Of a stretch of 64,000 bases of DNA, positions 5,525 to 51,449 are shown piece by piece. Made by a program: the position numbers and the translations under genes. The stretch spans positions 128,001 through 192,000 of the forward strand of contig CAWJQC010000004.1 in assembly GCA_963844965.1 (NCBI GenBank), written 5' to 3'. The notes under the pieces are model-generated. The model worked only from the letters and a program-made list of their open reading frames with translations. It did not search any database and was not told where the DNA came from. Positions within the stretch are counted from its first letter, which is position 1, and each line of letters starts with the position of its first letter. Source of the DNA: an uncultured bacterium. Its GTDB lineage: Bacteria > Patescibacteriota > Minisyncoccia > UBA6257 > 2-01-FULL-56-20.

Positions 5525-5569
5525 TCTTAGATTCTATTTTCTATTTTCCATTTTCTAGTTACGGCGCTA

Positions 5570-7873: not shown

Positions 7874-7907
<34 letters not shown>

Positions 7908-7954
7908 TTATGTTTTTATTCTATTTTCTATTCTCTAAATTCTAGATTCTTTAT

Positions 7955-11396: not shown

Positions 11397-11536
11397 CTAC
11401 GTAAACTGCCTTAATTTTGCGACGCAGGATACGAGGATTTTCCCGAGAAAATCATTGTTTGAAATTTTACTTCGGGGGCGCGGGCGAAAAAAATTTAGAT
11501 TCATCGCTTACTATTATCTTAACACAAACGGCGCGT

Positions 11537-30191: not shown

Positions 30192-30977
30192 TTAAAGCTG
30201 ATATTTTCGCTTAAACCTTTTTATCGCCTCTCTAGCGCCAGGCAAAGCTGTGGTGTTGTACAACTTACTTAGGTTGTCAAGAAAACTCGGACCAAATGAT
30301 TCCTCAAATAATTTAACAACGTCCTGGTTTTCAAGCGTCTCCCCGTTCAATAAAGCCTGCACCAATGCCTCCCAACACACGCGCTCGCTCTGCTGATTCT
30401 TAGTTGCCAACCTCTTTACCATGGCATTGACTAAAGAAACTTCTAGGTTATAGGAAAATCCTTGATCGCTTGCGACTGCCGTTTTGTATGCACTTACCCG
30501 ATCCTCGGGCCATCTTGATCGCTCTGCGTAAGCCACGGTGATTTCCCTGGAGAGCTTTTCCACTACGCCCTCGTTAAGCGCATCGAACAAGCAGCCGAAA
30601 TTACTGTTGCGGTATATGCTGCTGACTCGGCCCGACCTTCGGAAGTTGATGCCTTCTTCGCCCAACTTTCGAAACAGGCCGGATTGTTTATAGTCTACGT
30701 ATTCTTCGGTTCTTCGATCTGGGTGTTCGTAGGTATTCCACATACAGATATTTCGACTTACTGCATGCGTTTCCTCGTGTGCCAGCACAGCAAGCTGTAT
30801 TAACTCTGCCCCTCCGCATTTTTCAAGTTTCGCTTTTGCTGACTTCCGCCTTTTCGGATCCAAGTCAGAATAATCATCAACACGGCTAAGCACAATGACG
30901 TTGTTTTCCGGATTGTAGCTATGACCTGGACCCGCTATTTTAGACACAAAGGTCGAAACCAAGTACCATTGTGTCAT
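30192..30977 (-). CDS. HExxH-motif putative metallopeptidase-like protein
   Basis: AVLAHEETHAV zinc-binding motif; start trimmed to MTQWYLV because the upstream part of the ORF is antisense to the recombinase. Confidence 0.5.
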   Translation of the reverse strand: MTQWYLVSTFVSKIAGPGHSYNPENNVIVLSRVDDYSDLDPKRRKSAKAKLEKCGGAELIQLAVLAHEETHAVSRNICMWNTYEHPDRRTEEYVDYKQSGLFRKLGEEGINFRRSGRVSSIYRNSNFGCLFDALNEGVVEKLSREITVAYAERSRWPEDRVSAYKTAVASDQGFSYNLEVSLVNAMVKRLATKNQQSERVCWEALVQALLNGETLENQDVVKLFEESFGPSFLDNLSKLYNTTALPGAREAIKRFKRKYQL

Positions 30978-32394: not shown

Positions 32395-32720
32395 GTGTAT
32401 TTACAACACCGCTTGGACTTATTTTAACAAAAAACTCTGACTTTGGCGAGGCCGGAAGGGGTCGTTGAGGGGGTCGTTCCAGAACGACTACCTTTTGAAT
32501 TGAAAATACTCGGCGAGCACTGGCTTCTCTGCCTCTCGCGGAGTTTTTTCTTACCCCCGACAATACCTCCTTTGAGGAGGTTGAAGGTTGCCCCTTCGCC
32601 CCTCGCCTGCTGGCTCGGGGCTCGGGGCTTATATTGTTGTGGGCTGGATGCGCTAATTTTCCTCGGCTCCGCTCTCCTTGGCCGAGTTGAAAAACACGAA
32701 CCGCAGTTGATGCGCGCGGG
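32395..32720. repeat. ~330-bp element, left inverted-repeat copy (IR-L), starting at the recombinase stop codon
   Basis: Reverse complement matches 37650-37995 at roughly 85% identity (e.g. cccccgacaatacctcc / ggaggtattgtcggggg). Confidence 0.8.
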
Positions 32721-32800
32721 TGGGAGAGAAACTTTGAGCCAAGGAGGAGCGGAGGCCTCGGAAAATCGGCCTCTTACTGATATAATGAATATATAATGCT

Positions 32801-33673
32801 ATGCCGAAACATACCAGCAAAAAATTTGTCAGAAGCCCAGACAATGGCGGCCGATTGCGCATCCAGCCCAGCGACGTCGCGCTCCTCCGCGATTTGTCGG
32901 AATATCGTTTCCTGAACACCGAGCAGGTTTTGGCCCTGCACCACCGAGGTTTGCGCAACCTCCAACGCCGCTTGCACGATTTGTACCACGCGGGGTATCT
33001 TGAACGCCCTCCCCAGCAGAACATCTCCGCTCTGCCGAAAGGTCATATCGTTTACGGCTTGGGGGCGAAGGGTGCGGAGCTTCTTTATGAAAATCGGGAG
33101 GAGCGCGCCGAAAAACTCCGGCAAGTGAAGCTGAACCGCGAGACAACGTTTCCCTACATCGCCCACGCTTTGATGATTTCCCAGTTCCGCGCGGCCTTGA
33201 CACTGGCGGCGGAAAAAACCGGAGGGAAGATGAAAGTTGCGAGATGGCGACAGGGCTTTGAATTGAAAAACTATTTGAAGCTCCGCGGCGGAACTCCCGA
33301 ACTCATGCCGGACGCGTTTTTCGCGATTGAACAGGGCGACAGACGCTGGAACTTGTTTTTGGAAACCGACCGCTCCACGATGACACTTGACCGGTTTTTG
33401 GTAAAGCTCAAAACATACTGGAAATGGTGGTGGGAGGAAAAATACAAAGAACAGCTCGGCATCTCGCACTTCCGCGTGCTTACCATAACCATTTCCGAAG
33501 AACGGAAGGAGAACCTTCTCCGCGTCGCCAAAAACGCCGACCCGAGAAGGCAAGGGAGCAACATGTTTTTGTTTATTTCCGAAAAAGAGTTTTCGCTGAA
33601 GAAGCCGGAGGCGGTGTTGTCTCCGGTGTGGCTTTCGCCGAGAGACGGATTGAAACATTCGTTTCTTGAATAA
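32801..33673 (+). CDS. replication-relaxation family protein (plasmid/ICE-type)
   Basis: 290 aa; N-terminal wHTH (LLRDLSEYRFLNTEQVLAL) and core PDAFFAIEQGDRRWNLFLETDRSTMTLDRFLVKLKTYWKWW typical of that family. Confidence 0.7.
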   Translation: MPKHTSKKFVRSPDNGGRLRIQPSDVALLRDLSEYRFLNTEQVLALHHRGLRNLQRRLHDLYHAGYLERPPQQNISALPKGHIVYGLGAKGAELLYENREERAEKLRQVKLNRETTFPYIAHALMISQFRAALTLAAEKTGGKMKVARWRQGFELKNYLKLRGGTPELMPDAFFAIEQGDRRWNLFLETDRSTMTLDRFLVKLKTYWKWWWEEKYKEQLGISHFRVLTITISEERKENLLRVAKNADPRRQGSNMFLFISEKEFSLKKPEAVLSPVWLSPRDGLKHSFLE

Positions 33674-33733
33674 ATTAGCGGCGGCCACGAGGTCGAAGCG
33701 GCCGCCAGTTTTTTAAAAAGTTCCCTATACTTT

Positions 33734-34492
33734 ATGCCGCATACGCCGACGACAACGACAATAATCGTGGGCGCGCTCATGGTCATCGCCACCGCGCTTT
33801 TTTGCGTCGCGGCTTATTTTGTCATCAAATACGCGCTCCGCTTCGTCGGAAAAATGTTCAGCTTCGTAAACGAGGTGGCAAACATCGTCAGGGAAAGGAA
33901 AGACCGGTATCTTGTTGGGCCGGTTTGGGGATGGGACATACAAGACCGGATAGAAGAATGGGACAAGCCGGACGAGGAGTGGTCGGTTATGGTCGAAGGA
34001 GCGGCGGGATACGGCGAAGAATTTTTGGAGCGCGTCGCTCGCCGCGCGCTTGACGAAAACATTCCCCGGCTTGTGGTGAGAAAGCGGATTGTCTGGCCGT
34101 ATCTGCGCCGAAAATGGCAACCGGTTCTTGTGATAACCAACAAGAAAATAAAGGGCTATCAAATGCTGATTGACGCGACAGACTACACCGACCGCCTTGA
34201 TGTTTGGTGGCGAGTTGATAAAGGCGACCGCGACCAACTGCCCTTGAGAGGGGCGGAAATACGGGAAAAGAGATTCGGGCTCGATTCGTCGGGCGTTCTT
34301 GAAGCCCAAGCCCAACAAGAGAAAAACTGGGTATTTCCCGAACAGATGACCGCTCTCGACAAGCAGGAGTGGGACAACTGCACTGGTTTGGTGCGCGATA
34401 TTGTCAGAGCCGAGGTAAAACGGATGGCGGACGAAGTTCGTATCGGCGGCGGCGTGGCTGGCGGCGCGAAGGGATTTATTGACATCAACTAA
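33734..34492 (+). CDS. membrane-anchored hypothetical protein, 14-nt overlap with the downstream T4CP-like ATPase
   Basis: N-terminal TM helix IIVGALMVIATALFCVAAYFVI; translationally coupled to the next gene. Confidence 0.55.
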   Translation: MPHTPTTTTIIVGALMVIATALFCVAAYFVIKYALRFVGKMFSFVNEVANIVRERKDRYLVGPVWGWDIQDRIEEWDKPDEEWSVMVEGAAGYGEEFLERVARRALDENIPRLVVRKRIVWPYLRRKWQPVLVITNKKIKGYQMLIDATDYTDRLDVWWRVDKGDRDQLPLRGAEIREKRFGLDSSGVLEAQAQQEKNWVFPEQMTALDKQEWDNCTGLVRDIVRAEVKRMADEVRIGGGVAGGAKGFIDIN

Positions 34493-36071
34493 CTATGAAA
34501 AACGGATTTTTAAAAACAATTTTGGACTGGATACTGGACTGGCGTTATCCGCTCCCGCCCCCGCCGGAGCCGGACTTGCCTCTTTTTCCGAGCAGTCGGA
34601 GGAACCGATGGCGGACAAATTCAAACTGCCGAGGCCCAACGAGCTTGTTCTCGGCAGTACGACAACCAAAGGGCCGGACGGCAAGGCAGAAGGCAAGACA
34701 AAGGGCGTGTCGCAGGACGACCGCTCGACCCATTTTTACGTGGTGGGAGCGACCGGCACGGGCAAGACGAAATTTTTGGAAACCCTAATCTTGCAGGACG
34801 CGATGAACGCGCACGGCTTTGGCATCGTGGACGCGCAGGGCGATTTGACGGAAGACATCAAGAGCTATCTTTTCATTCTTACCTTCCCAAACGAACCGGA
34901 GGAAACCGCCGAATTTGAAAAAGATTCGGAAAAAGCCCTCAAAAAAATTAAAAGATTTTTGAGCGAACGCGTCGTGCTGATAGACCCGTCCGACAGGGAA
35001 AGAACTGTTTGCTTTAATCCGCTTGAAAAAGTGGAGGGGCTTTCGCCCGCCGGAATCGCGAGCGAAGCAGTGGAGGCGTTCAAGAAAATCTGGCATGACG
35101 CTTGGGGCGCGAGAATGGAAGACCTGCTCAAAAATTCTCTGATAGCCCTCGTCGAGAACGACCTCACCCTCGCCGAACTTCCCCTGTTTCTTTCCGACAT
35201 CGGGGCGAGAAAAAAGATTCTGAAAAAAGTCATCCATCCCGTCTGCCGCCAGTATTTTGAAAAGTTCAATTCTTTGAGGTCGTCGTTGCAGGACGAGTGG
35301 GCGGAATCAACTCTGAACAAGGCCCGCGCCTTCATGTCCAACGACCACGTGCGGCAGATGCTCTCGGCGGTTAAAAGCACTTTCAACTTCCGCGACATAA
35401 TGGACGACCGGAAAATTCTGCTGGTGAAGCTGAATCGCGGAAAATTGAAGGGCGACGCCGACCTGCTCGGCTCTTTGCTTCTCTCCAAAATCCAGATGGC
35501 CGCCTTTTCTCGGACGGACGTTCCGCAATCCGAACGCGTGCCGTTTTATCTTTACATCGATGAGTTTCAGAATTTTGCGACCGAGAGTTTTATCCAAACG
35601 CTCGCCGAAGCGAGAAAGTATGGCCTGTCGATTACGCTGGCTCATCAGAATCTCGCCCAGCTACCGCCGTCCCTGCGGGCGTCGATACTCTCCAACTGCG
35701 GCTTGCAGGCGTACTTCCGCATCTCGCGCGACGACGCGAACATGCTAGCTAGGGAATCTCTCGCTTCCGTTTACGAAGAGCCGCCCGGCTGGGAGTTTTA
35801 CGTCCGCTCGCTTCAAGAACTGCCGAGGCGCGAGTGCGTGATAAAACATAAAATCGCGGGAGGCGTGATTGCCGTCCACACCATCGGACTGCCTACCCCT
35901 TGGGAATGGGCGAAGATGGACGAAAAGAAATTCTCGGAGGGACTGGCCGCGATGAATACCGGCGGCGCGTACATGCGCAAGCGCGAGGACATAGAGAAAG
36001 AATATCGGTCGAGGCAAGAGGCCCTCCGATTTATGGACGAGCCGGAGAGTTTCTGGGAGCGGAAGGTTTAA
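34479..36071 (+). CDS. VirD4/TraG/TraD-like type IV coupling-protein-type ATPase (soluble domain only)
   Basis: Walker A VVGATGTGKTKF; Walker B YLYIDEFQNFATE; ARKYGLSITLAHQNLAQL motif characteristic of T4CP/TraD-like ATPases. Confidence 0.65.
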   Translation: MTSTNYEKRIFKNNFGLDTGLALSAPAPAGAGLASFSEQSEEPMADKFKLPRPNELVLGSTTTKGPDGKAEGKTKGVSQDDRSTHFYVVGATGTGKTKFLETLILQDAMNAHGFGIVDAQGDLTEDIKSYLFILTFPNEPEETAEFEKDSEKALKKIKRFLSERVVLIDPSDRERTVCFNPLEKVEGLSPAGIASEAVEAFKKIWHDAWGARMEDLLKNSLIALVENDLTLAELPLFLSDIGARKKILKKVIHPVCRQYFEKFNSLRSSLQDEWAESTLNKARAFMSNDHVRQMLSAVKSTFNFRDIMDDRKILLVKLNRGKLKGDADLLGSLLLSKIQMAAFSRTDVPQSERVPFYLYIDEFQNFATESFIQTLAEARKYGLSITLAHQNLAQLPPSLRASILSNCGLQAYFRISRDDANMLARESLASVYEEPPGWEFYVRSLQELPRRECVIKHKIAGGVIAVHTIGLPTPWEWAKMDEKKFSEGLAAMNTGGAYMRKREDIEKEYRSRQEALRFMDEPESFWERKV

Positions 36072-36081
36072 CCGCGCCTAT

Positions 36082-36111
36082 TTGACAAACCGGACTTGAA
36101 AATGGTATCTT
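36082..36111 (+). promoter_or_regulatory. candidate sigma-70 promoter
   Basis: TTGACA (36082-36087), 18-nt spacer, TATCTT (36106-36111). Confidence 0.3.
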
Positions 36112-36267
36112 CTCCCCAGTTTCATTACCCCCGCCGTCCGCGCTAAAGCGGTGCGGCGGGAAAGCGGAACGCGAGGGAGATCGCGCTCTCGCCCGTTCCC
36201 TTGGATGGCTCCTCCTCGAACCGCCGAGAAGAAGGAATGAAACTTTTTCATAATAAAGAGTACAATA

Positions 36268-36300
36268 AAAGGACGTCACGGGACGTCCTTTTATTTTTTT
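36268..36300 (+). terminator. rho-independent terminator
   Basis: aaaggacgtc-acgg-gacgtcctt followed by ttattttttt. Confidence 0.5.
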
Positions 36301-36354
36301 GAACTGGAACATCTCGCAACCGAAATAGAGCCGCTCGGCAAAACCACCTTCCAC

Positions 36355-37597
36355 GAGAAGGGCGTTTTATTCGGCATCAGGCCCAAAGACCGCCGCCATC
36401 ATATGTACGTTATCGGGCAGACCGGCACCGGCAAGTCCACGCTCTTGAAGAATATGGTGATACAGGACTTGCGGTTCGGCCACGGGGTGCGCGGTCATTG
36501 ATCCCCACGGCGAACTGGTGGAAGACATTTTGAACTTCGTGCCGCGCTCGCCGCACGAACGAGGTCGTGTATTTCAATCCGGCGGACACGGAAAACCCCA
36601 TCGGCTTGAATATCCTTGAAGCCCGCGACGAGAACGAAAAACAGCTCGTCGCTTCGTCGCTCATCTCGGTATTCAAGCATTTGTGGAAAGGGTTTTGGGG
36701 TCCGCGGCTTGAGCACGTTTTCCATAACGCCATACTTGCTTTGATGGACACGCCGGGCAGTACCTTGCTCGGCATTTACCGGATGCTCGCGGACGACGAA
36801 TACCGGCAGCAAGTCGTCGGCGCAGGTCAAAGACCCCGTCGTGAGATTGTTTTGGAAGGAGGATTTTGAGAAGTATCCGCCGCAACTTCAAAAAAGAAGT
36901 CGCCTCGCCGATTCAGAACAAAATCGGCCAGCTTCTCACGAGCACGCCCTTGCGAAACATCGTCGGCCAGTCCCGGAGCACGATTGATCTGCGCTTCATT
37001 ATGGACAACCAGAGAATTTTCCTTGTGAACCTCGCCAAAGGCACGGATCGGCGAGGACAAGGCAAATCTGCTCGGCTCGGTGCTCGTTACGAAGCTGTAC
37101 CTTGCCGCGCTTGAACGGCAGGACATGCCGGAGGAGGAACGCAAGGATTTTTATCTGTACATTGACGAGTTTCAGAACTTCTCCACGGACGTTTTCCCGT
37201 CTATCTTGTCGGAAGCCAGAAAATATCGGCTTGAACCTCATTCTCGCCCATCAATATCTTATATCAGCTTTCGGAGAGCGTGAAGCACTCGGTTTTCGGC
37301 AACGTCGGCACGCTCGCGTCTTTTCGCGTCGGAAGCATCGACGCGCGCGAACTGGCCGAGGAGTTCAGCCCGACTTTCACCAAAGAAGACCTGGAACACA
37401 CCGAAAACTATCACGCCTACCTCAAGCTGATGATAGACGGGAAGCGATCCACTCCTTTTTCCGCCGAAACGCTCCCGCCTCTCGCCCATCAGGGCGACGA
37501 GGCGCAGAAAGAAACGCTCATTAGAGTTTCACGGGAGCGTTTCGCGTCAAAGCGAGAGGACATGACGGAGAAAATCGAAAAATGGTTTTCAAAGTAA
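36355..37597 (+). pseudogene. degenerate T4CP-like ATPase paralog with at least five frame disruptions
   Basis: Consecutive frames give MYVIGQTGTGKSTLLKNMVIQDL / VYFNPADTENPIGLNILEARDE..FWGPRLEHV / KEVASPIQNKIGQLLTS..DLRFIMDNQRIFLVNLAKG / DFYLYIDEFQNFSTDVFPSILSEARKY / SVFGNVGTLASFRVGSIDAREL..; collinear with the 34479 gene. Confidence 0.7.
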
Positions 37598-37649
37598 ACC
37601 ATTTTTCATGTTTTTTTTCCTCGGCCTTGCGGCCTGAGCGGATTTTCTT

Positions 37650-37995
37650 TTTTTGTTTTCCTTCCCACCCGCGCGTAGAATACGATTCGGTTTTTTCAAC
37701 TCGGCCAAGGAGAGCGGAGCCGAGGAAATACGCTAGAGACAGCCCAGCATACAATAGTAAGTCCCGAGCCCCGAGCAGCAGCGAGGGGCGAAGGGGCAAA
37801 CCTTCACCCTCCCAAAAGGAGGTATTGTCGGGGGTGTCGAAAGGTCCGAGGCGGAGCGAAGAAGCCAATATCAGCGGAGTAATTTCAATTCACGGGGTAG
37901 TCGTTCTGGAACGACCCCCTCAACGACTCCTTCGGGCCTCGCCAAAGTCAGAGATTTTGGTTAAAATAAGTCCAAGCGGTGTTGTAAATACACTC
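37650..37995. repeat. ~330-bp element, right inverted-repeat copy (IR-R)
   Basis: Reverse complement of IR-L; outer end ...gtaaatacactcc abuts the recombinase-3'-end duplicate. Confidence 0.8.
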
Positions 37996-38140
37996 CATAA
38001 CACAACTTAAAGGTTTTTTATTCACCGAACAATGGGCTTCCACAATGGAAGCCCATTGTTTTTCCGCAAAACCGCGCGCTTCGCGCGCGTGGAGTGTCAG
38101 GTTCAATCCGAAAATTTTTTGAGCGAACGATTTTTTGAGG
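37996..38140 (-). repeat. near-identical duplicate of the last ~140 nt of the 43135 recombinase gene (att-like junction with IR-R)
   Basis: Reverse complement matches 44515-44650, then switches at gttatg|gag into IR sequence instead of tRNA-Gly. Confidence 0.75.
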
Positions 38141-38244
38141 GGTAAGGGGGTCGCAGATAAAGATATAATGCTTGCCCCGCCCTTCCCGTGCGCGCATTAT
38201 GTATTTTTGCCGATTTTGAAATCGGCAACTCCCTTATAACGATT

Positions 38245-40950
38245 TTACCTTTTCAGACCATATTTCTGTTCTCGTTTCTGGAAAGCTTCTGTGCCGCCCT
38301 CAAGAACGTCATAGATTGTCTTCCGCATCTCTATATTCTCTAACGAACCTTGTAGGGCATTAACCTTACTTTTATCATCAACGGATAAAGCAGTTATCAA
38401 TTCTGAATCGCCCAAGACAACGATATTGGCGTTATGGGTGCAAATAATTATCTGCCTGTTCACTTTTTGCTCTCTAACCAAAGTTACTACCTTCTCTGCT
38501 ACGAATTTTGCGTCAAGGTGATCCTCCGGCTGGTCAATGATAAGTGGATGGTCGCCAGACAACAATATAAGTTCCACCAAAGTGCCGCATCGCTCGCCGA
38601 ACGACATACTATCTTTGCCGAGTATTTTAGTTCCATATTTAATGTGATTTTCTCCGGTTTCCGCATATTCATCTAGCCGCATTATTAGGTCTTCTCTAAT
38701 AATTTGAGTATTCGGGTCTTCAAAAAACCACCGCAGAGTTTCTGTCTTTCCGCTACTATCTTGTAATTTTGGTATTCTATTTTCTTTAATAGTGGAAATT
38801 ATCTTTTCCCTTGCGACATCACCAGTAGCTTTGCCGACAAGTTCGTTTATTACATCTTTAACGTAATCCTCTCTGACGGGAGATTTTATCTTAAAATTCT
38901 TTTCAATGACACCCTTTAACTCGTCGTTTGATTGGAGGAACTGCTCCTTTATCCACGGAGCAATATCACCACTTGGATCGTCCCATACGGCAGTGATTGT
39001 TGTATCCTTAAAAGATTCGTTGAACCCGCCAATAAGTTTTTGGTTTTCCTTTATCCAGAGTTTTAGTTTTGCCGCCAGTTGATTCACGAGTTGGCTGTGT
39101 TGTTTCTTATCGCCTTCAAACTTTTTTAGGCGATTTTCAAGTTGCGATGATTGCTGGTCAATAAACTTAATTCTGTTGTTTCGCTTTTCTACCTCACTCT
39201 TTGTTATAGTAACGCCGTTTAGCTTACAGTAATCGGTAAACTGCTTTGTAAGTTCTGCGCTTTCTCTATCCAGTTCTTTTTTTACATCGGATTCTCTTAC
39301 TTCCTTTACTGCTCCTTCTAAATTCTTAACTACGGAATCCAGTTGAGATTCTTTTAGGTTATAAAAATCTTCAATTTTTTTCTTTAGCGCATTTTTCTCC
39401 GCAAAAAGTTCTAAAACTTTATCTTTATCAACAGTAGTAGAAAGTTTAAGTTGCCCTGCGAATTTTTTAATGAGGACGGCTTGGGCTTCAATATCTTGGA
39501 TCAAGCCATCAATCAACTGGCGTTTGGCTCTATTGCTTTTAATTTTTTCGGCAAGGTCTTTATATTCTTTTGTTTTTAACTTCTTAAAGTAAGATTCAAT
39601 TTGTTCTCGTTCCGCTTCAAGTTTCTTTTTGTCTATTTCTACTTGGAGTTTATCGGCGTAACTGTTACGGGTAGTTTCCATTTCTACAGCCAACGCCTCT
39701 ATTTCCTCTTTTGTCTTAATGAGTAGATCGGAATGAAGACGGCCTCCTATGTAATCCGCTATCTGTTTTGGGCTATCGGCTTTTTTCTCAATTTCTCCTT
39801 GTGTCCAGTATTCAACTTGAAAGGACGAAGTATAAAATGGGTCATTCCACTCTTTGACTTGACGCTTTAGAGATACTGGGTCTTCTGCTCCACTTTGAAA
39901 GATAACCTCAACTTCAAGATTGGGGAACTCCCTACTCAAAAATTCAATTAAGGAAAGTTTTTTGTCGCCTTTATCGGATGAAAACTTGTTAGCTACATAT
40001 CCAATCAATTCTGCTAAAGCGGTCTTTCCGGCGGCTCGTGGCCCGATAACCGTGGTTAAATTCGGACTAAAAAACAGTTCTTGATTTAGAGTAATTGGTG
40101 GAAATATACTTCTCTTTGATTGATAACTTTGATGATTTAGCAATTTTGCGGATACAATCTGCGGATGAAGATAAAGTGGCGGACTATCATCAAGACAAAC
40201 TCTAATAACTGGCTCATAAATAATTTGTTTCAAACCTTCAAATGTTGGATCGGCCTTAATCCAACTATACTTCTTACCAATTACTTCCGTTGAGTGGCCG
40301 CTTTTGTATTGAAGTTTTGATCTATCGCAAGCGTCGGAAGTAATAATACACGGAAACTCCTGTTTAATCTTTGGGAACACTATTTTTCTGTAATCCTCAA
40401 CCTGTTTTATGGCCGATACTTCAAAAATATCAACCAAAAACGCTAAATCTTTTTTTAGTGTCGCACGGACATCACTATCCAATTGTTCTATCCCGTTGGA
40501 CTTGTTACCCGCGTGGAGTAAAACAAGCCCGTCTAACTCGTGTATTTTTTGACACGCGTCTTCAAAGTTACAGTAAATCTCCTTATCCCCCTTACCCTTA
40601 ATATCGTTTTCCGAAAAATTAAGAGGGCAGAGTAATTTATCGTAAATAGTTTTTGAAGTAGTGGAAGAATCAAAAACTCCGATAATATGTATCCCTTTAT
40701 TGCCCTTATCGGTGCGCAGTTCAACGCCGGGGAGAATTGTTATATCTTTTCCTTTAGCAGCTTTTAGAACCTCGTCAATTCCTTTAACGGTATGGTGGTC
40801 TGTAATAGCAATAACAGATATATTTTCTGTTATTGCCTTTTTCACTATGTCTTCCGCTTTGTCTTTACAGCCACTATCCCAATCATAAGAAGACGGGGTA
40901 TGAACGTGCAAATCCCACTTTCTCCAAATTGAACCGCGGGGTGAATTCAT
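38245..40950 (-). CDS. PHP-domain phosphoesterase fused to an SMC/SbcC-like ABC ATPase with a long coiled-coil insert (901 aa)
   Basis: PHP motifs WDLHVHTPSSYD and VIAITDHH; Walker A GPRAAGKT; ~350-aa coiled coil; signature-like MSFGERCGTLVELIL; Walker B LIIDQPEDHLD; H-loop IICTHNANI; start codon 6 nt after the MTase stop. Confidence 0.75.
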   Translation of the reverse strand: MNSPRGSIWRKWDLHVHTPSSYDWDSGCKDKAEDIVKKAITENISVIAITDHHTVKGIDEVLKAAKGKDITILPGVELRTDKGNKGIHIIGVFDSSTTSKTIYDKLLCPLNFSENDIKGKGDKEIYCNFEDACQKIHELDGLVLLHAGNKSNGIEQLDSDVRATLKKDLAFLVDIFEVSAIKQVEDYRKIVFPKIKQEFPCIITSDACDRSKLQYKSGHSTEVIGKKYSWIKADPTFEGLKQIIYEPVIRVCLDDSPPLYLHPQIVSAKLLNHQSYQSKRSIFPPITLNQELFFSPNLTTVIGPRAAGKTALAELIGYVANKFSSDKGDKKLSLIEFLSREFPNLEVEVIFQSGAEDPVSLKRQVKEWNDPFYTSSFQVEYWTQGEIEKKADSPKQIADYIGGRLHSDLLIKTKEEIEALAVEMETTRNSYADKLQVEIDKKKLEAEREQIESYFKKLKTKEYKDLAEKIKSNRAKRQLIDGLIQDIEAQAVLIKKFAGQLKLSTTVDKDKVLELFAEKNALKKKIEDFYNLKESQLDSVVKNLEGAVKEVRESDVKKELDRESAELTKQFTDYCKLNGVTITKSEVEKRNNRIKFIDQQSSQLENRLKKFEGDKKQHSQLVNQLAAKLKLWIKENQKLIGGFNESFKDTTITAVWDDPSGDIAPWIKEQFLQSNDELKGVIEKNFKIKSPVREDYVKDVINELVGKATGDVAREKIISTIKENRIPKLQDSSGKTETLRWFFEDPNTQIIREDLIMRLDEYAETGENHIKYGTKILGKDSMSFGERCGTLVELILLSGDHPLIIDQPEDHLDAKFVAEKVVTLVREQKVNRQIIICTHNANIVVLGDSELITALSVDDKSKVNALQGSLENIEMRKTIYDVLEGGTEAFQKREQKYGLKR

Positions 40951-40956
40951 AAATTA

Positions 40957-42072
40957 TTACCTTTGTTTCAAAAACTCGTACTCAATCTTTGAAAATAAAT
41001 TACTGGGTAAGTTAGACAATCTTTTTTTAGCAACCTTGATGGCCTGTTCTGATTTATCAATACCAATCCAATGTCGGCCAAGCTCTTGGGCGGCAACGAG
41101 GGTTGTCCCAGAGCCGCAAAAACAATCAAGAACTAAATCGTCTTTATTTGACGAAGCTTCAATAATAAACTTTAACAAGTCCAAACTTTTTTCTGTTGGA
41201 TAATTGGGATACTGCGGGTCTTTAAATTCCCAAATATCCTGCATTTTCTTCCCTGTTCTCTCATCGAGGAAAATTTTTTTGCGTGGTACTCCGCTTGCCG
41301 ACCATTCAATAAGTCCTTGCTTATCCCATTCTTCTAAAATAGCCGGATTAGTTCGCCAATGGCGTCCTTTTGGTGGTTTTTGCCCTCGCCACTCCTTACT
41401 TGTATTCCCGTTTGATGTTTCTCCGGGTGCGTGGAGTGGGATTGTTGTATATCGCCGTCCGTCTTTATCAACTTTCTTAAACAAGCGATCCTCGTCTTCC
41501 TCGGAGAATGAAACGTGTGGATCATTCCAAATCGGGTTTTCTGATTTGGAGTAAAAAAGTATCAAATCCTTGATATTGCCGTAGGCCTTACGATGAAAAT
41601 TTTTCGGGTTACACTTAATGCGAGTAATATCGTTACGAAAACTTTTGCGACCAAAAACTTCATCCATTATAAGTTTCACATAGTGGCCGATTTTATAATC
41701 AATGTGAAGGTAAATTGACCCACGCTCGGATAGAAGTTCGCGCAAAAAAATCAGGCGTTCGCGTAGAAATTCTAAAAATTCCGCACCAATTAACGTATCG
41801 CTATATGCAATCTCATCGCTATTGCTACTACTGATTGTATTGGCACGCCCCTCGCTTATTTTGAAATGGCCATTGGTTGCAAATGGTGGATCAATATAAA
41901 TCAAATCAACCTTACCCCCATAATTATCAAGTAACGTTTTGAGAGTGGAAAGATTATCGCCATGAACAAGTTTATTTTTTGCCCCTTTGCCGGAAAGCAC
42001 TTTCAAGTTAGCTCTTGGAGTGCTTTCAAGAATTTCACGCTCACCCTTTTTGCTTTCATAACTAAGAAGCAT
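40957..42072 (-). CDS. beta-class DNA methyltransferase (N6-adenine or N4-cytosine)
   Basis: Motif IV LIYIDPPF precedes motif I VLDCFCGSGTT (beta-class order). Confidence 0.8.
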   Translation of the reverse strand: MLLSYESKKGEREILESTPRANLKVLSGKGAKNKLVHGDNLSTLKTLLDNYGGKVDLIYIDPPFATNGHFKISEGRANTISSSNSDEIAYSDTLIGAEFLEFLRERLIFLRELLSERGSIYLHIDYKIGHYVKLIMDEVFGRKSFRNDITRIKCNPKNFHRKAYGNIKDLILFYSKSENPIWNDPHVSFSEEDEDRLFKKVDKDGRRYTTIPLHAPGETSNGNTSKEWRGQKPPKGRHWRTNPAILEEWDKQGLIEWSASGVPRKKIFLDERTGKKMQDIWEFKDPQYPNYPTEKSLDLLKFIIEASSNKDDLVLDCFCGSGTTLVAAQELGRHWIGIDKSEQAIKVAKKRLSNLPSNLFSKIEYEFLKQR

Positions 42073-42078
42073 ATAAAA

Positions 42079-42861
42079 TTATATTTGATATAAGAATTCG
42101 CGCAGGACGAGTGCGCTCATAATATTCTCGTCCTTTAACTCGCCAGCGACCGCTTTATACATTTTGTTGTTGCCCTTGATATAAAGTACCCCATCTAAAA
42201 TGGCCACCTTAACCGCTTTAACACCCTTCGCTTTGATAGTGGCGATTGCGTCGTTAAATTGAGCATTTTGATGACCCCCAAAATCGGTTAAAAATTTTGC
42301 CTCTCCAATAACATACTTCCCGTTAAAACGCCCTATCAAATCAAGTCCTTTGTTATGATTGTAGTTCAAGTATTTTTTAGCAAAGGCCATCGTTTCCGCA
42401 TCTCCCGCATCAAGAACTGCGTTTCCTTTTGCCACTAAAAATTCCGACATCTTCAGCGGTTGCACTCCGAGAGTTTTTCTATTCAGCCAGCGGCGGAAAA
42501 GTGGGCCAATTTGTCGGTTTGTTTCTTTTGGCTCTGATGAACGAGAGAAAATTTGCTTAAGACCCATCTCATACAATCGGCCACATAGACGAGCAACCGT
42601 CGCCGGATTGCGCTTTAATGCTTCTTTGTCGCGCTTAAGATAAGCAATGTAGGAATCTTTAATAGGAAATAAATCAAGCTTCAAAAGATTTTCAAGAAGC
42701 GCAACATTGTTCCTTTTTTCAAACGCCTGTTCTACGTTTTTCCAAAGCGCCTTGTTAATGTCGCGAATTCCCTCTGGAATTGTTGGATATACTTGAAACA
42801 AATCATCGAGGTAGCTTCGCTGATTTGCGTAATCAATACTTAATTTTGTCCAATGGTTCAT
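42079..42861 (-). CDS. putative type II restriction endonuclease (PD-(D/E)xK-like)
   Basis: 260 aa between the C-protein and MTase genes; GLDLIGRFNGKYVIGEAKF fits a D...E-x-K motif; no other recognisable motifs. Confidence 0.55.
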   Translation of the reverse strand: MNHWTKLSIDYANQRSYLDDLFQVYPTIPEGIRDINKALWKNVEQAFEKRNNVALLENLLKLDLFPIKDSYIAYLKRDKEALKRNPATVARLCGRLYEMGLKQIFSRSSEPKETNRQIGPLFRRWLNRKTLGVQPLKMSEFLVAKGNAVLDAGDAETMAFAKKYLNYNHNKGLDLIGRFNGKYVIGEAKFLTDFGGHQNAQFNDAIATIKAKGVKAVKVAILDGVLYIKGNNKMYKAVAGELKDENIMSALVLREFLYQI

Positions 42862-42865
42862 GGTT

Positions 42866-43078
42866 TTATTTTATTAAGTCATCAACTGCGACATTTAGGG
42901 CTTTGGCTATTTTCGCCAAAGTTTCTATTGTCGGATTCTTATTAACACCCGATTCAATTTTAATCATGGTGTTATAGGTAACATCCGCCAATTTGGACAA
43001 ACGATCTTGTGAAATGCCGAGTTTACTACGGTATTTTTTGATATTCTCGGCAATCCTTGATTTGTTGCTTGCTCCCAT
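42866..43078 (-). CDS. XRE-family HTH controller (C) protein of the R-M operon
   Basis: 70 aa; KKYRSKLGISQDRLSKLADVTYNTMIKIESGVNKNPTIETLAKIAKAL; first gene of the operon, 4 nt before the REase. Confidence 0.7.
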   Translation of the reverse strand: MGASNKSRIAENIKKYRSKLGISQDRLSKLADVTYNTMIKIESGVNKNPTIETLAKIAKALNVAVDDLIK

Positions 43079-43134
43079 AGTAATATAGTAGTATGATTGA
43101 ACTAATAGCGAGTGATTTTGTTTAATCTATTACT
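43079..43134. promoter_or_regulatory. divergent control region between the C-protein gene and the recombinase gene; contains inverted repeats (candidate C-box)
   Basis: ccatagtaata...tattactatgg 11-bp inverted repeat spanning the 56-bp intergenic region. Confidence 0.35.
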
Positions 43135-44739
43135 ATGGTATCAAAAAATACACCGCACGTAAATACCTATTTTCTCTACGCCCGCAAATCCACCGACGTT
43201 GAAGACAAGCAAGTCCGGTCTATTGAGGACCAGCTTGCCGTATTGCGGGCGTTGGCCAAAGGCGAAGGACTAACTATCGCCAGAGAGTTTATTGAGCGGC
43301 AATCGGCCAAGAAGCCGGGCCGCCCCGCTTTTAACGAAATGCTCGCCTTGATTGAAAAAGGCGAAGCGCAAGGAATCCTCTGTTGGAAACTTGACCGCTT
43401 GGCTCGCAATCCGGTTGATAGCGGCCGCATATCTTGGCTCTTACAGCAGGGCGTTATCCGGCACATCCAAACGCACGACCGAAGCTTTTATCCTACGGAC
43501 AATGTTTTGATGACGAGCGTAGAGTTCGGGATGGCGAACCAGTTTATCCTTGATTTGAAAGTGAACACCAAACGCGGCCTTGACGCCAAAGCCAAGCGCG
43601 GCGACTATCCGGGCCATGCTCCCATCGGCTACATCAACGACACCCGCGTAAAGCTCGTGGCCGTTGATAAAAGGAAATCCAAAATTATCAGGCGCGCGTT
43701 TGAACTCTACGCCGAGGGCAACTGGCGTTTGGAAGACGCCGCCAAATTCCTTTTGGAGAACGGTATTAAAACGAAAGGCGACAAACCCTTGTCGCGCGAC
43801 CGAATCTCTTATCTCTTGACCAATCCTTTTTATTACGGCAATTTCCGCTACAACGGGGAACTTTACGAAGGCAATCACGAGCCGATAATTACGAAGCAAC
43901 TTTTTGACAAAGTTCAGGCGGCGTTGAAAGCGCGAAGCAAGCCGCCCTCAAGTCCCGCCAATCACCCGCAAGCTCTTTGCGGGGCTATCCGGTGCGGCAC
44001 TTGCGGCATGATGATAACCGCCGAGCGTAAGATAAAACACCAGAAAAACGGCAATGTCCACGAATACACTTATTATCGTTGTACCCGCAAGAACAAAGCG
44101 ATCCGGTGCTCCGAGCCGCCTATCCGCGAGGACGCGCTTAATCGGCAGTTATCGAACCTTATCAAAAAGTATGCTTTGCCGGACGATTGGGCGGCGGAGC
44201 TATTAAAAATGTCCGAGCGGGACGAACAGGAAGCCGCCCAATCAACGACCGCCCTCGTCCGAGAGGCGCGGGACGAGATACAGGCCATTTCTCAAAAACT
44301 CCAACGCCTTCTTGACGCATATCTTGACCAAGATATTGAGCGGGAAAGCTACCGCTTCGAGAAGGCAAACCTTCTCTCCCGCAAGAAGTCGTTGGAGGAG
44401 AAAATCGGCAATTTGGAGCAAGGGGCGATTGCTTGGGTTGAACCCCTGCGCGATTGGATAAAAGACGCTCAAACGCTGAACGAAATGACGGAAACGACCC
44501 CCTTACCCCTCAAAAAATCGTTCGCTCAAAAAATTTTCGGATTGAACCTGACACTCCACGCGCGCGAAGCGCGCGGTTTTGCGGAAAAACAATGGGCTTC
44601 CATTGTGGAAGCCCATTGTTCGGTGAATAAAAAACCTTTAAGTTGTGTTATGGAGCGGGCGAAGGGAATCGAACCCTCGTCTATAGCTTGGGAAGCTATC
44701 GTACTGCCACTGTACTACGCCCGCAAGATAGCCCACTAA
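43135..44739 (+). CDS. large serine recombinase (integrase), intact; 3' end overlaps tRNA-Gly in antisense
   Basis: 534 aa; catalytic N-domain YARKSTDVEDKQVRSIEDQ, recombinase domain, zinc ribbon CGTCGM..YYRCTRKNK, coiled coil; last ~30 codons are antisense to tRNA-Gly. Confidence 0.85.
   Translation: MVSKNTPHVNTYFLYARKSTDVEDKQVRSIEDQLAVLRALAKGEGLTIAREFIERQSAKKPGRPAFNEMLALIEKGEAQGILCWKLDRLARNPVDSGRISWLLQQGVIRHIQTHDRSFYPTDNVLMTSVEFGMANQFILDLKVNTKRGLDAKAKRGDYPGHAPIGYINDTRVKLVAVDKRKSKIIRRAFELYAEGNWRLEDAAKFLLENGIKTKGDKPLSRDRISYLLTNPFYYGNFRYNGELYEGNHEPIITKQLFDKVQAALKARSKPPSSPANHPQALCGAIRCGTCGMMITAERKIKHQKNGNVHEYTYYRCTRKNKAIRCSEPPIREDALNRQLSNLIKKYALPDDWAAELLKMSERDEQEAAQSTTALVREARDEIQAISQKLQRLLDAYLDQDIERESYRFEKANLLSRKKSLEEKIGNLEQGAIAWVEPLRDWIKDAQTLNEMTETTPLPLKKSFAQKIFGLNLTLHAREARGFAEKQWASIVEAHCSVNKKPLSCVMERAKGIEPSSIAWEAIVLPLYYARKIAH
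44651..44724 (-). tRNA. tRNA-Gly (anticodon CCC)
   Basis: 74 nt: GCGGGCG-TA-GTAC-AGTGGCA-GTAC-G-ATAGC-TTCCCAA-GCTAT-AGAC-GAGGG-TTCGATT-CCCTT-CGCCCGC-T-CCA; perfect acceptor stem; CCA encoded. Confidence 0.85.
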
Positions 44740-48458: not shown

Positions 48459-51449
48459 TCAGACAGGATTCGGCAGGAATTCCGCCCAATCAAAGTCAAA
48501 TGGTTTCTTCCAATAATCACGGAGGAAGTCGAACGGCAACGTTCGGATAAGTATGGGCCCGCCATCGGGACCGGACACGGGAAGTCCGACAAAAGAAACA
48601 CCTGTGTTGTTCGGCGGGAAACCAAGCTCGCCGTACACCTCCGTCGGCACGCCGGGCATTGCCATGACATAGACAGTATGTCCGGTGAGAACCGCGCCGT
48701 CGAAGTGCTTGTCGCCGTAGACCTTGAGCGTCATGCGCCTGTCAAAGATGCGGGAGTAGTTCCCGCGCCTTTCGTCGTTGCGAACGGCAGCAAGAAGCGT
48801 GTTACCCCAGCTTGAGAGCTTGGTGGGCTTGTTCCGCACTTCAAGGCCCCACTCATATCCGCCGGGGGCTTTAACAGTTCCCCAGCCGACCGTGATGTTG
48901 CCGTAAACCGGCGCCTTCACGAGCTCGTCGAGCAATTCCTCCTTGCCATTCCACTGAGGCCTTGCCCGAAGCATGAGCCGCAGATTCTTGGCGTAGATCG
49001 GGCCTTCCAAGATCGCCCACTCCACGGTATTGAGGAAATGATTTCCCGTGGAAAAATTCACCGCGCCAATATCTCTCGTGTCGGGAGTGCCCGCGGGAAA
49101 ATGGTCGTTGTCGTTGAACGCACTTACGCCGCGCAGGACTATTCCCGCGTCCACCGTACGCGTCAAGAGCGCATCAAAGAAATCAATATTCGGCTCAAGT
49201 AGGCGCTCGATAGCTTGGTCAACCTGATCCTGCGTCCAGTGCTCGCCTCGCACCTGAAACTGATAAAGGTTGAAGCGCCGCATTTCGCGCAGAACTTCGA
49301 GCCGCTTCGCCGCGTCACCGCGCTCCGCCTCTTTCAATGCCGCGAGCCATCTTCCTTCGATCTTGTGGAAGGGAATCTTGTGCTGATGAGGCTGTTTTTG
49401 AGTTTCAAAGTGGTTGCCCTGCGTAGGGTCGTCCGCTATCGCGAAAATATGCAGGGGCATTTTCCCTTTCTCAAAAAGCTTTGCGCGCCGCATCATTTCG
49501 ATGACGGCTTCACACATGCCGAGGTCTCGCCCGTTTTCGGGATGGACAAATTCTTTCCAGCCCCAGCCCCAGTGCGGGTCGGAGGGAAGCATTGCCCAAA
49601 TATACTTATCGCTCGGTGCATCTTTCGTTTTAGAATAGATGCCATGTCCCACTTCGCTCTTGATGAGCGCGCCGACCGTGAAAGGCTCGGCGTGCACCAC
49701 GCCGTCGATGCAGGCAAGATCTATCACGCCCGCCTGGAATTGGCCGGCCCAGATCGCCTTCTCCAGAGGATGAACTCTCTTTGTGGTCTCCAGAAGTTGC
49801 GATCGGAGGAACTTCTCGTCAATAAGAATGGGGGCGACATATACCCGCGCAGAGCCCCTTTTGCCGCGGACATCCACTTCGCGTGTCGTCCTGCGGAAAT
49901 TTAGCGAGTGCGGATGGCAGCGGACAACCGTCCTCGGGATCTCACCGCGAAGAACGCGCGGTCCGTAGTGGTCGGAAAAATCCGCGAGCAATTCGTCGGT
50001 AACCCGAGTATGGGGCGGGATCTCAAAAAGCACCATCTCGTCGCCGATCTTCATGTAGGTAGAACCCTGTCCGATGACTTTCGAGTTGGGGATCGCCTCT
50101 TCGATCTTTTGAACAACAAATGTGCGGATGCGTCGCGCATAATCTTCCATGTCTTCGCGGCGATGGTTCGAAACCCTCGTTCGGGAAAGTTCTTCGGCAA
50201 TCATGTTGCGATTTTCGGTAAGTTCCTCAATTTTCTTTTTGGCCGCGCCGGATTCCAACGCCTTTTTGAGCTCCTTGTTCGCAAGCGACAGTTCAACCGC
50301 AAGGTCTTTCTGCCGTAAGAGCGTCTTGTAACGGAGTTCCCAATAGGTCGCGGTCTTGATGAAGTCATCTTCTTTCGGTCCGAGAATAATGAACACGGAA
50401 CCCTGAAATTCCGGCTTGCCGTCGGGGCGCATATCGTTCTTTCTCCATCCGGAGAGAATGTTCAGGAATTTTTCCGCAACCGTTTCGTAGATGAATCCTT
50501 CCTCATCACCAGCGAGAACCGCTTTGGCCCGCGGCTGGTAAGATTCCGACAGGATATCCACGTTCGTGTTGTAACCGGAGATCTGAGAACGGTAAATCTG
50601 CGGAGTGCCTCCGGCCTTTTTAAGGTCAAGGTCAATGAGGCTCACGAGAACCACGAAATCTTCTTTCCTGCGTTGAGCATTGGCCAATGCGCAACGGACG
50701 GGATTCTCTTCAATGATAGGCGTGTGCTTGATACCGATGTTCGCGCCGTTAATGACCCTTCCCGTCCAATGAGACTTCGTGACGCCCGATATATAGGGAT
50801 GCTTGATGGAGTTTTTCTCGAACCGTACGATATCCCTCGGATCGATCTTGCTCACGTCGGTTACGCGCCCGATGCCGCGCATGAACTCAGCCGGGTGCTT
50901 CAGGTTGCTTATGCCACGGAGTTCTCTCACCTTCGCTGCCGCAAATCTTTGCGGAATATACGAGTAGTACTTCAGGAAGGTTTCTATCGGCATGCCGCGC
51001 CGCATCACTTTCTCAAACGCCTTAAGCGTCTCGCTGTCCCAGACAATTCCCGAAACCTTTTCGGTAAAATCTTCGCGGTTCTGGAGAAAATTCGGCTTGA
51101 TGCTCGCCACGTCGGCTTCCTTGCGGAGTTTTTCGTGGAGTTTTGCTATGGCATTATCACCATCGAGCAAAGCGCCGTGAACTATCAGCTCACGCAGCTC
51201 GCCTTCGAGCGGTTCTTCCTGCGCATTGCCGCGCTCATAGCTGATACGCAAATTACTAGCCAGAGATTTAATGTATTCCTGAGTAGTTTCAACACCGTGT
51301 GCGTTTTTGACATGCTCTAGCACGCCACGCGCGCCGAAGCGTTCATAATACTTCTTAACGGCTTCGCGGATTATCTTTGCCTTAGCGCCTGGATCCTGGT
51401 ACTTTATCCCAAGTTCACCGGCCGTGTGAGAGATCGTGCTTACTGACAC
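48459..51449 (-). CDS. large hypothetical protein (996 aa) whose C-terminal half carries RtcB-like RNA-ligase motifs
   Basis: LPSDPHWGWGWK (cf. RtcB PDVHxGYG), DLGMCE (cf. DINCG), two GNHF motifs (QGNHFE, TGNHFL); N-terminal ~600 aa unassigned. Confidence 0.6.
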   Translation of the reverse strand: MSVSTISHTAGELGIKYQDPGAKAKIIREAVKKYYERFGARGVLEHVKNAHGVETTQEYIKSLASNLRISYERGNAQEEPLEGELRELIVHGALLDGDNAIAKLHEKLRKEADVASIKPNFLQNREDFTEKVSGIVWDSETLKAFEKVMRRGMPIETFLKYYSYIPQRFAAAKVRELRGISNLKHPAEFMRGIGRVTDVSKIDPRDIVRFEKNSIKHPYISGVTKSHWTGRVINGANIGIKHTPIIEENPVRCALANAQRRKEDFVVLVSLIDLDLKKAGGTPQIYRSQISGYNTNVDILSESYQPRAKAVLAGDEEGFIYETVAEKFLNILSGWRKNDMRPDGKPEFQGSVFIILGPKEDDFIKTATYWELRYKTLLRQKDLAVELSLANKELKKALESGAAKKKIEELTENRNMIAEELSRTRVSNHRREDMEDYARRIRTFVVQKIEEAIPNSKVIGQGSTYMKIGDEMVLFEIPPHTRVTDELLADFSDHYGPRVLRGEIPRTVVRCHPHSLNFRRTTREVDVRGKRGSARVYVAPILIDEKFLRSQLLETTKRVHPLEKAIWAGQFQAGVIDLACIDGVVHAEPFTVGALIKSEVGHGIYSKTKDAPSDKYIWAMLPSDPHWGWGWKEFVHPENGRDLGMCEAVIEMMRRAKLFEKGKMPLHIFAIADDPTQGNHFETQKQPHQHKIPFHKIEGRWLAALKEAERGDAAKRLEVLREMRRFNLYQFQVRGEHWTQDQVDQAIERLLEPNIDFFDALLTRTVDAGIVLRGVSAFNDNDHFPAGTPDTRDIGAVNFSTGNHFLNTVEWAILEGPIYAKNLRLMLRARPQWNGKEELLDELVKAPVYGNITVGWGTVKAPGGYEWGLEVRNKPTKLSSWGNTLLAAVRNDERRGNYSRIFDRRMTLKVYGDKHFDGAVLTGHTVYVMAMPGVPTEVYGELGFPPNNTGVSFVGLPVSGPDGGPILIRTLPFDFLRDYWKKPFDFDWAEFLPNPV

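Follow-up and report, generated by a model that had tools for sequence, protein, structure and literature searches.

Does a nuclease-like ATPase encoded at the end of a restriction-modification (R-M) operon belong to the restriction system, or is it a separate defence that shares the operon? The question is raised by a locus of an uncultured bacterium of the Patescibacteriota. The DNA analysed, referred to here as the window, is a stretch of 64,000 nucleotides (nt) corresponding to positions 128,001 to 192,000 of contig CAWJQC010000004.1. Within it, four co-oriented genes encode a helix-turn-helix (HTH) regulator, a type II restriction endonuclease (REase), a DNA methyltransferase (MTase) and a 901-amino-acid (aa) protein of the TrlF family, a family related to the anti-phage protein Ppl. 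Relatives of the 901-aa protein were located inside type I, type II and type III R-M operons, a distribution that suggests an accessory acting together with restriction enzymes. TrlF is therefore proposed here as a plug-in accessory to restriction, acting on restricted DNA through a generic intermediate. We put the probability of this reading at roughly one in two.

The window operon and the 901-aa protein

The operon lies on the minus strand. Its first gene encodes a 70-aa XRE-type HTH regulator in the position of a controller (C) protein (42866-43078; Pfam HTH_3, E 9e-13). The second encodes an apparently intact type II REase of the Tsp45I family (42079-42861; PF06300, E 1e-120, residues 1-260 of 260), and the third a type II beta-class N6_N4 DNA MTase (40957-42072; PF01555, E 5e-48). 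The fourth encodes the 901-aa protein (38245-40950), in which a PHP domain and an SMC/Rad50-like ATP-binding cassette (ABC) ATPase were identified using Pfam, NCBIfam, motifs and an AlphaFold model. The gaps between the genes, read from the window sequence, are 4, 6 and 6 nt, and the ATG of the fourth gene is preceded at 8 nt by AAGGT, a Shine-Dalgarno-like motif within the end of the MTase gene. An earlier sequence-only reading of the window had given these four open reading frames (ORFs) and their 4-6 nt spacers exactly, and its gene identities agree with Pfam and PADLOC.

The MTase translation has DPPF ahead of FCGSG and matches PADLOC model MTase_II PDLC03354 over nearly its full length (E 8e-174). 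The REase matches PADLOC model REase_II PDLC03495 (E 6e-126). By Pfam and PADLOC, the two enzymes form a cognate pair, intact and encoded side by side.

The 901-aa protein has Pfam matches to PHP (E 2e-11), SMC_N, AAA_21 and AAA_23. It passed NCBIfam equivalog model NF045780, "TrlF family AAA-like ATPase", with 469.2 bits against a curated cutoff of 350 (residues 5-898, profile positions 1-944). It missed the cutoff of the Ppl equivalog model NF042955, scoring 155.7 bits against 1000 (E 1e-45; best stretch residues 780-893). The PADLOC Ppl model matched in two stretches, mainly in the C-terminal ATPase lobe (E 1e-33). By these profiles the protein is a TrlF-family relative of Ppl and not a Ppl equivalog, so that the kinship with Ppl proposed in the sequence-only reading holds at the level of the family and no further. 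The family comprises 1,093 clusters (50% identity clustering) at E values up to 1e-30, with about six representatives at E below 1e-140. RefSeq labels plasmid homologs "TrlF family AAA-like ATPase"; a literature search found no paper explaining the name TrlF or its function.

Motifs were determined from an alignment of 32 relatives. In the window protein all PHP metal residues are present (D13, H15, H17, D51, H52, E77, H88, H146 and D206), as are Walker A (303-310), the Q-loop glutamine (Q384), the signature SFGER (783-787), Walker B (D806/E809) and the D-loop. The H-loop histidine lies in the segment CTHNAN of the translation. The PHP histidines, Walker A and B motifs, SFGER and H-loop listed in the sequence-only reading were all recovered, and the ABC motifs are invariant across the alignment. 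These residues predict a nuclease-type active site coupled to an ABC ATPase.

An AlphaFold model of the protein has a pLDDT of 85 and a pTM of 0.70. In Foldseek searches, the ATPase part resembled a coiled-coil-bearing SMC head (5xei, E 4e-9), JetC, MukB and Rad50, and the N-terminus matched the PHP domain of RNase AM (7ug9) with a root-mean-square deviation of 3.4 Å. No solved Ppl/TrlF structure was found by profile or fold; only the PHP and SMC/Rad50 pieces were matched. The continuous coiled coil is about 250 aa long (helices ~394-646), shorter than the ~350 aa estimated before. Neither a hinge nor a CxxC zinc hook was found in the protein, and Pfam and NCBIfam scans contained no anticodon nuclease or HEPN domain. 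Identity as a RecN/SbcC repair protein was ruled out by genomic context and by the lack of an Mre11/SbcD partner gene and of a hook; the homologs are associated with defence and with mobile genetic elements.

TrlF inside type I, II and III operons

In total, 184 loci (cited by L numbers) were fetched using exact look-ups, genome and metagenome scans, and annotated plasmid records. Relatives with at least 40% identity to the window protein occur in 14 distinct contexts, the window counted. TrlF is co-oriented inside an R-M operon in 12 of the 14, and these operons include three type II systems as well as type III and type I systems.

The window contributes the first type II arrangement: HTH, Tsp45I-type REase, MTase and TrlF. 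The second, in L163-165 (88% identity), encodes an HTH protein, a C5 MTase, a HaeII REase, Vsr, a 162-aa ORF and TrlF, which begins in a 4-nt overlap. The HaeII-family REase in these loci is split into overlapping ORFs of 156 and 200 aa (L163 2668-3733, L164 134-1199, L165 167-1232). The third, L178 (44%), encodes an HTH protein, a fused type II MTase, a type II REase (PADLOC E 4e-69) and TrlF.

In type III operons TrlF lies between the two restriction genes, in the order Mod, TrlF, Res. This order was found in L166 (75%), L168 (70%), L083 (63%), L169 (60%), L184 (58%), L174 (57%, a Candidatus Woesebacteria genome) and L003 (46%, Nanoarchaeia). Gaps in the Mod-TrlF-Res loci are a few nt, and TrlF and Res overlap by about 20 nt. 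Full-length matches to PADLOC MTase_III (E 1e-126) were obtained for the Mod proteins of the type III loci. L001 (89%) encodes a type III Res followed by TrlF. The type I locus L176 (57%) has the order HsdR, GmrSD, HsdM, TrlF, HsdS, with TrlF placed between hsdM and hsdS.

Two contexts lie outside such operons. TrlF of L002 (85%) is adjacent to a type I system, in its own transcription unit 268 nt from divergent hsdRMS, and that of L180 (40%) follows a Cas4-like nuclease with no MTase. More distant TrlF proteins (22-27% identity) are solitary on Escherichia coli IncF colicin plasmids and on Burkholderia and Staphylococcus epidermidis plasmids. The annotated NF045780 members sampled are mostly solitary genes, whereas the clade of the window protein is operon-embedded. 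A haloarchaeal plasmid TrlF lies inside a DUF1156/DUF499 locus, and the partner of TrlF on a Yersinia plasmid is a Schlafen-like protein. On that Yersinia ruckeri plasmid (L182, 4977-8731) and in eight metagenome or genome loci, a Schlafen AlbA_2/HATPase_c_4 protein overlaps the 3′ end of TrlF. These loci form a separate TrlF subgroup that may be a two-gene system.

The NCBIfam family name, Ppl as a defence, and R-M-embedded accessory genes such as PrrC are already known. A literature search found no description of Ppl/TrlF-type genes inside type I, II or III operons, or of a Mod-TrlF-Res unit.

Evidence for a link to restriction beyond clustering

Purpose-built hidden Markov models for MTases and Res/HsdR helicases were applied to 146 non-duplicate TrlF loci. 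Type II REases lie outside this set of models, and the neighbour counts are lower bounds. Within 0-100 nt of TrlF, 25 same-strand R-M genes were counted, compared with 2-3 per kb at 4-7 kb. R-M genes near TrlF are on the same strand rather than the opposite one at a ratio of 78:9. TrlF thus very often adjoins R-M genes in other genomes. Pfam tallies of tight neighbours across the wider family yielded mostly N6_N4 and C5 MTases, BsuBI/PstI REase, HsdS and ResIII, and the further dominant neighbours were Vsr, PglZ, DUF499 and Schlafen-AlbA_2 proteins.

Type III operons provide evidence of shared descent. In three pairwise comparisons the identities of Mod, TrlF and Res are 81/71/89%, 79/84/84% and 69/70/58%, and the coding flanks on either side of TrlF are conserved in the type III group. 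Because Mod, TrlF and Res co-diverge and the flanks are conserved, the trio is taken to be inherited as a unit.

Decay of the PHP site is a further line of evidence. TrlF of L184 (6001-8766) has lost most PHP ligands (N51, Y52, N88, Y146) and kept every ATPase motif, and it is still located between Mod and Res. Some TrlF members of type III and type I operons carry H15Q, and all PHP-altered TrlF whose context was examined are inside type III or type I operons. A TrlF without a nuclease site cannot be an autonomous nuclease effector, and the L184 protein would therefore have to work with its neighbours. Its retention argues for an integrated role and not for an autonomous nuclease. Among the aligned relatives, P0015, P0017, P0026, P0028 and P0043 have a PHP site that is altered (H15Q) or largely lost, with invariant ATPase motifs.

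Operon position, tight neighbours, co-inheritance and PHP decay together argue that the link between TrlF and R-M exceeds the clustering expected of defence islands.

TrlF as a promiscuous, apparently mobile module

TrlF proteins 85-89% identical to that of the window accompany a type III Res (L001) or a HaeII-type system (L163), or stand alone (L002). Nucleotide homology of the window to L001 and L002 (~86%) extends from 5 nt upstream of the ATG to about 16 nt short of the stop codon. The GC content of TrlF is 37-39% in L001, L002, L163, L166, L174 and L176, in hosts or operons of 37%-56%. This holds irrespective of the partner genes, which have 45% (Mod) and 47% (Res) in L166, 48% (Res) in L001 and 44% (HsdM) in L176. 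The TrlF ORF behaves as if it were itself the mobile unit.

Since near-identical TrlF proteins occur with different R-M modules and distant ones occur alone, TrlF appears as a promiscuous R-M-linked module and not as part of a dedicated four-gene system. By these comparisons it is a module that often lands in restriction operons and that was fixed there in one lineage. The sequence-only reading had proposed a candidate four-gene cassette of C protein, REase, MTase and ATPase. As a dedicated system this is not supported, in view of the unrelated or missing R-M partners of near-identical TrlF, the ORF-limited homology and the separate GC content. The functional tie between the ATPase and restriction that it also proposed gains comparative support from embedding in all three R-M types, from co-divergence and from the retained PHP-degenerate member, in a form other than a dedicated system.

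The carrier element

By its gene content and ends, the locus is a mobile cassette of about 6.7 kb that consists of a serine recombinase and a divergent HTH-controlled operon and is inserted at the 3′ end of a tRNA-Gly gene. Placement on a serine-recombinase element at tRNA-Gly, and a drop in GC across the cassette, had both been read from the sequence before and hold: cassette GC is 0.37-0.42 against a background of about 51%. The integration site is tRNA-Gly(CCC) on the minus strand (44651-44724), detected using ARAGORN and Rfam (70.5 bits). Rfam found this tRNA alone over 36-46 kb. The large serine recombinase, LSR1 (43135-44739, plus strand), has all three Pfam domains, Resolvase, Recombinase and Zn ribbon. 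Its nearest NCBIfam models are CcrB/XisF-like, with scores under the equivalog cutoffs.

The cassette is bracketed by a perfect 161-nt inverted repeat, which the sequence-only reading missed. The left arm, S′ (37993-38153), is directly downstream of the TrlF gene and 100% complementary to the right arm, S (44495-44655). The outer 5 nt of S, TGGAG, correspond to the tRNA-Gly 3′ end CTCCA. Read outward, the left arm contains GC-rich hairpins followed by T-runs. TrlF, MTase, REase, HTH and recombinase genes lie in the 6.3-kb segment between the arms, and the LSR1 ORF reads through the right arm into the antisense of the tRNA.

S-like sequence also follows TrlF in L001, L163 and L164, with three different outer flanks, and the repeat is therefore regarded as a real element end. 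In L163 the outer flank is the 3′ end of tRNA-Leu(TAA). The relatives adjoin tRNAs in the opposite orientation, and either orientation occurs among related copies. An assembly artefact was ruled out as the source of the repeat, as S recurs in three independent contigs and, in diverged form, at the end of a second recombinase gene. Inversion as an ON/OFF switch was also considered; the arms are identical in the window, so flipping the segment would leave the coding sequence within them unchanged, and a switch is not apparent.

Between the window and L163, the recombinases are homologous (about 75% identical in the N-terminal part, by eye) and the DNA is 71% identical over the recombinase 5′ end and HTH region. 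TrlF is 88% identical, and the nucleotide identity of the repeat is 89-93%. The R-M modules that lie between HTH and TrlF in the two elements are unrelated. From this pattern the difference looks like an R-M cassette swap within a conserved backbone. The L163 recombinase carries an in-frame stop.

In a more distant locus, L148, where TrlF is 29% identical, a recombinase gene comes first, followed by HTH, Mod, Res, a 230-aa ORF and TrlF. Inverted repeats of about 350 nt (886-1234 and 11486-11835, 92-97% complementary) bracket its operon and exclude the recombinase. The AT-rich upstream region of its HTH gene lies within the bracketed segment, and a tRNA-Ser 3′ fragment follows the repeat-bracketed operon. 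Serine recombinases adjoin TrlF in several further loci.

The recombinase and HTH genes of the window are divergent. A putative control region with a 56-nt intergenic interval (43069-43144) contains an inverted repeat and a promoter-like site for the operon. The arms of this repeat overlap the start codons of both genes (CATAGTA...TACTATG), and the same arrangement is present in L163 (1362-1462). The repeat is a likely operator and a candidate for one shared by the two elements. No known consensus for a canonical C-box was established upstream of the window HTH gene; only the start-codon inverted repeat was seen. A scan for promoters and terminators gave counts at shuffle level and is uninformative.

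The HTH protein had been read as a C protein. Its position and a weak match to PADLOC Control_protein (E 2e-8) fit that assignment. Its conservation across different R-M modules does not: it is about 70% identical (by eye) to the HTH protein of L163, whose R-M module is unrelated, and 49% identical to that of L148 (tblastn). Because the HTH protein is common to an element with an unrelated R-M module, it may regulate the element and not just the R-M pair. It looks like part of the element backbone and is not clearly a module-specific C protein.

Mobile DNA also adjoins the cassette on the left. A second large serine recombinase gene, truncated N-terminally (30976-32394), has a 3′ region that resembles S, followed by a tRNA 3′ fragment, TGGAGCGGGTAACGGGAATCGAACCC. 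Inverted repeats X (32393-32716) and X′ (37670-37995), of about 330 nt and 86-90% complementary in their best-matched parts, enclose a Replic_Relax gene (32801-33673), a TraD/TrwB coupling protein gene (34479-36071) and a degraded TraD copy, a pseudogene (36567-37597). The region 30976-37995 looks like older mobile-element debris, in an arrangement like serial insertions at one tRNA. Flank X was considered as a conserved attP-like partner of the left arm and was dropped, as the L164 and L001 flanks are not homologous to X.

Proposed mechanism and rival explanations

As a plug-in accessory, TrlF would act after its partner. The R-M system would provide discrimination of self from non-self and would break unmethylated invader DNA. 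The ATPase head of TrlF would then engage the cut DNA, and the PHP domain would degrade or otherwise disable it, so that a cut that could be repaired would instead eliminate the invader irreversibly. The Res nuclease might take over from the PHP domain in type III operons. Because near-identical TrlF proteins have partners of types I, II and III, coupling would have to pass through a generic intermediate, either DNA ends or DNA topology, and not through specific protein contact.

A precedent is available for the mechanism. E. coli Ppl is a 3′-5′ single-stranded DNA exonuclease that is inhibited by bound nucleoside triphosphates (NTPs), and it is switched on by NTP depletion together with 3′-OH ends from phage homing endonucleases (PMC12904381). 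The mechanism is credited to Xu et al., Mol Cell 2026, as cited in PMC13434339.

Several points weigh against an accessory role. E. coli Ppl works alone, as a single gene. TrlF may likewise need no partner, because the plasmid members stand alone and L002 has a separate transcription unit. TrlF is intact beside the split HaeII REase in three independent contigs (L163, L164 and L165), and an active REase is therefore apparently not required for TrlF retention. The constant GC content of TrlF and the ORF-limited homology also fit a selfish module that lands in well-expressed operons. Co-transcription of TrlF with the R-M genes is predicted solely from the spacing and from the lack of predicted internal promoters and terminators. 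The DNA ends also matter: Tsp45I produces 5′ overhangs, HaeII produces 3′ overhangs, and type I and type III enzymes cut at a distance. Since the ends made by the partners differ, a strict Ppl-like requirement for 3′ overhangs cannot hold for all contexts.

A stronger form of the accessory reading, tentative and rather unlikely, holds that TrlF-type proteins are true third components of an unnamed class of restriction systems, a universal restriction booster. On the same tentative footing, taken jointly, the class would comprise Mod-TrlF-Res, HsdM-TrlF-HsdS and type II R-M-TrlF, and the protein would load on DNA marked or cut by any R-M type. Equally tentative, and again taken jointly, are the expectations that the class is especially common in small-genome lineages, such as bacteria of the candidate phyla radiation and DPANN archaea, and that it spreads in two forms, as a free module of ORF size and on inverted-repeat serine-recombinase cassettes.

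The rival that survives best, and that we consider rather unlikely, is an independent, self-sufficient Ppl-like second defence that hitch-hikes in R-M operons with no mechanistic coupling. Clustering and co-movement of defence genes, and the expression gained by insertion into an operon, would explain its R-M location. The stand-alone genes on E. coli IncF, Burkholderia and S. epidermidis plasmids fit such a hitch-hiker, as do the separate unit of L002, the unrelated modules that adjoin 85-89% identical TrlF, the ORF-limited homology to L001 and L002 with a distinct GC content, the split REase of L163-165 and the single-gene action of E. coli Ppl. It is harder to reconcile with the overlapping junctions that place TrlF inside the mod-res and hsdM-hsdS gene pairs, with the strong co-orientation and the sharp pile-up of R-M genes within 100 nt, and with the inheritance and co-divergence of Mod-TrlF-Res as a unit. 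The PHP-degenerate member is also retained, whereas a nuclease effector acting autonomously would be expected to disappear once its active site is lost.

A very unlikely alternative is a guardian of R-M of the PrrC/PARIS type, latent while restriction works and unleashed by a phage anti-restriction factor to cause abortive infection via DNA destruction. Embedding of prrC in a type IC locus follows the same genomic logic (PMC12707154). PrrC, RloC and AriA also have an ABC-type ATPase, the 901-aa protein has weak AriA matches and PARIS among its fold matches, and Ppl itself is gated by nucleotide pools. Guarding by contact needs partner specificity, however, and near-identical TrlF proteins occur with type I, II and III systems that lack a common subunit. 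A guardian is also at odds with the lack of an anticodon-nuclease or HEPN domain and with PHP-degenerate members, which would have no toxic effector.

Least probable of all is a TrlF that maintains the serine-recombinase element or processes its DNA (by resolving or protecting ends in excision and transfer, or by excluding competing elements) and is not an anti-phage partner of restriction: recombinase, HTH, TrlF and terminal repeat are conserved between the window and L163 while R-M is swapped, L148 shares the gene order and long inverted repeats despite its distant TrlF, and serine recombinases adjoin TrlF in several other loci, but housekeeping genes surround most Mod-TrlF-Res operons, which have no recombinase in the vicinity (e.g., L174; also L169, L176 and L184).

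Comparison with known systems

Ppl was reportedly described by Gao et al. in 2020 as a single-gene anti-phage system. Like TrlF, it combines an N-terminal PHP nuclease with an ATPase, has a similar length (~880-900 aa) and is found on mobile or defence DNA, and its sequence homology to the window protein is detectable with the PADLOC and NCBIfam models. Ppl is a solitary gene, whereas TrlF of the window is the last gene of a four-gene co-oriented R-M operon. C-controlled type II R-M systems of the Tsp45I family share the order HTH, REase, MTase and the 4-6 nt gaps with the window, which differs by the fourth co-oriented gene.

PrrC in EcoprrI, RloC and restriction-linked ORFs (PMC12707154, PMC2610378, PMC3458546) resemble TrlF in placing an ABC-type ATPase and a nuclease inside an R-M locus as an extra defence layer. 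PrrC and RloC have a C-terminal anticodon nuclease, whereas TrlF has an N-terminal PHP phosphoesterase domain of a kind that acts on DNA or RNA. RloC has a zinc hook and TrlF, with no CxxC, has none. PrrC is specific to type Ic systems, whereas TrlF occurs with type I, II and III systems.

The logic of an SMC-like ATPase with a nuclease is shared with Wadjet JetABCD, Lamassu, Rad50-Mre11 and SbcCD, and the best structural matches of the TrlF ATPase head and coiled coil (5xei, JetC, MukB and Rad50) are of this kind. TrlF differs in being a single polypeptide with a PHP domain, in its short coiled coil, and in having no kleisin/KITE, Mre11/SbcD gene, hinge or hook.

The carrier resembles SCCmec Ccr, TnpX/TndX, XisF and serine phage integrase elements in having a three-domain large serine recombinase at the element edge, a defined site and cargo. 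Its perfect terminal repeats are far longer than the usual att half-sites, and its recombinase ORF reads through one repeat arm.

Other features of the window

A perfect 300-nt direct repeat (23545-23844 and 24424-24723, 879 nt apart) lies inside a 1,174-aa ORF (22146-25670). Three copies of a composite motif (5046-5134, 5491-5561 and 7875-7948) consist of a (TAGAAAG)n run followed by TTCTATTTTCTA-like sequence. A 996-aa ORF (48459-51449) has no Pfam match.

Implications

The carrier is an unusual element, a serine-recombinase cassette with 161-nt perfect inverted ends at tRNA genes, and it illustrates the exchange of entire R-M modules in a conserved backbone. R-M systems and Ppl-like nuclease-ATPases are usually treated as separate defences that merely cluster. 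Close relatives of one such ATPase are here built into all three R-M types, and in one lineage the Ppl-like gene is co-inherited between mod and res even after decay of its nuclease site. The reported need of Ppl for DNA ends made by phage endonucleases raises the question of whether host restriction cuts feed TrlF. If they do, this would account for the way in which bacteria possibly without RecBCD-type nucleases complete the destruction of restricted DNA. TrlF would then also amount to a portable enhancer of restriction, and type III R-M would gain a three-gene variant.

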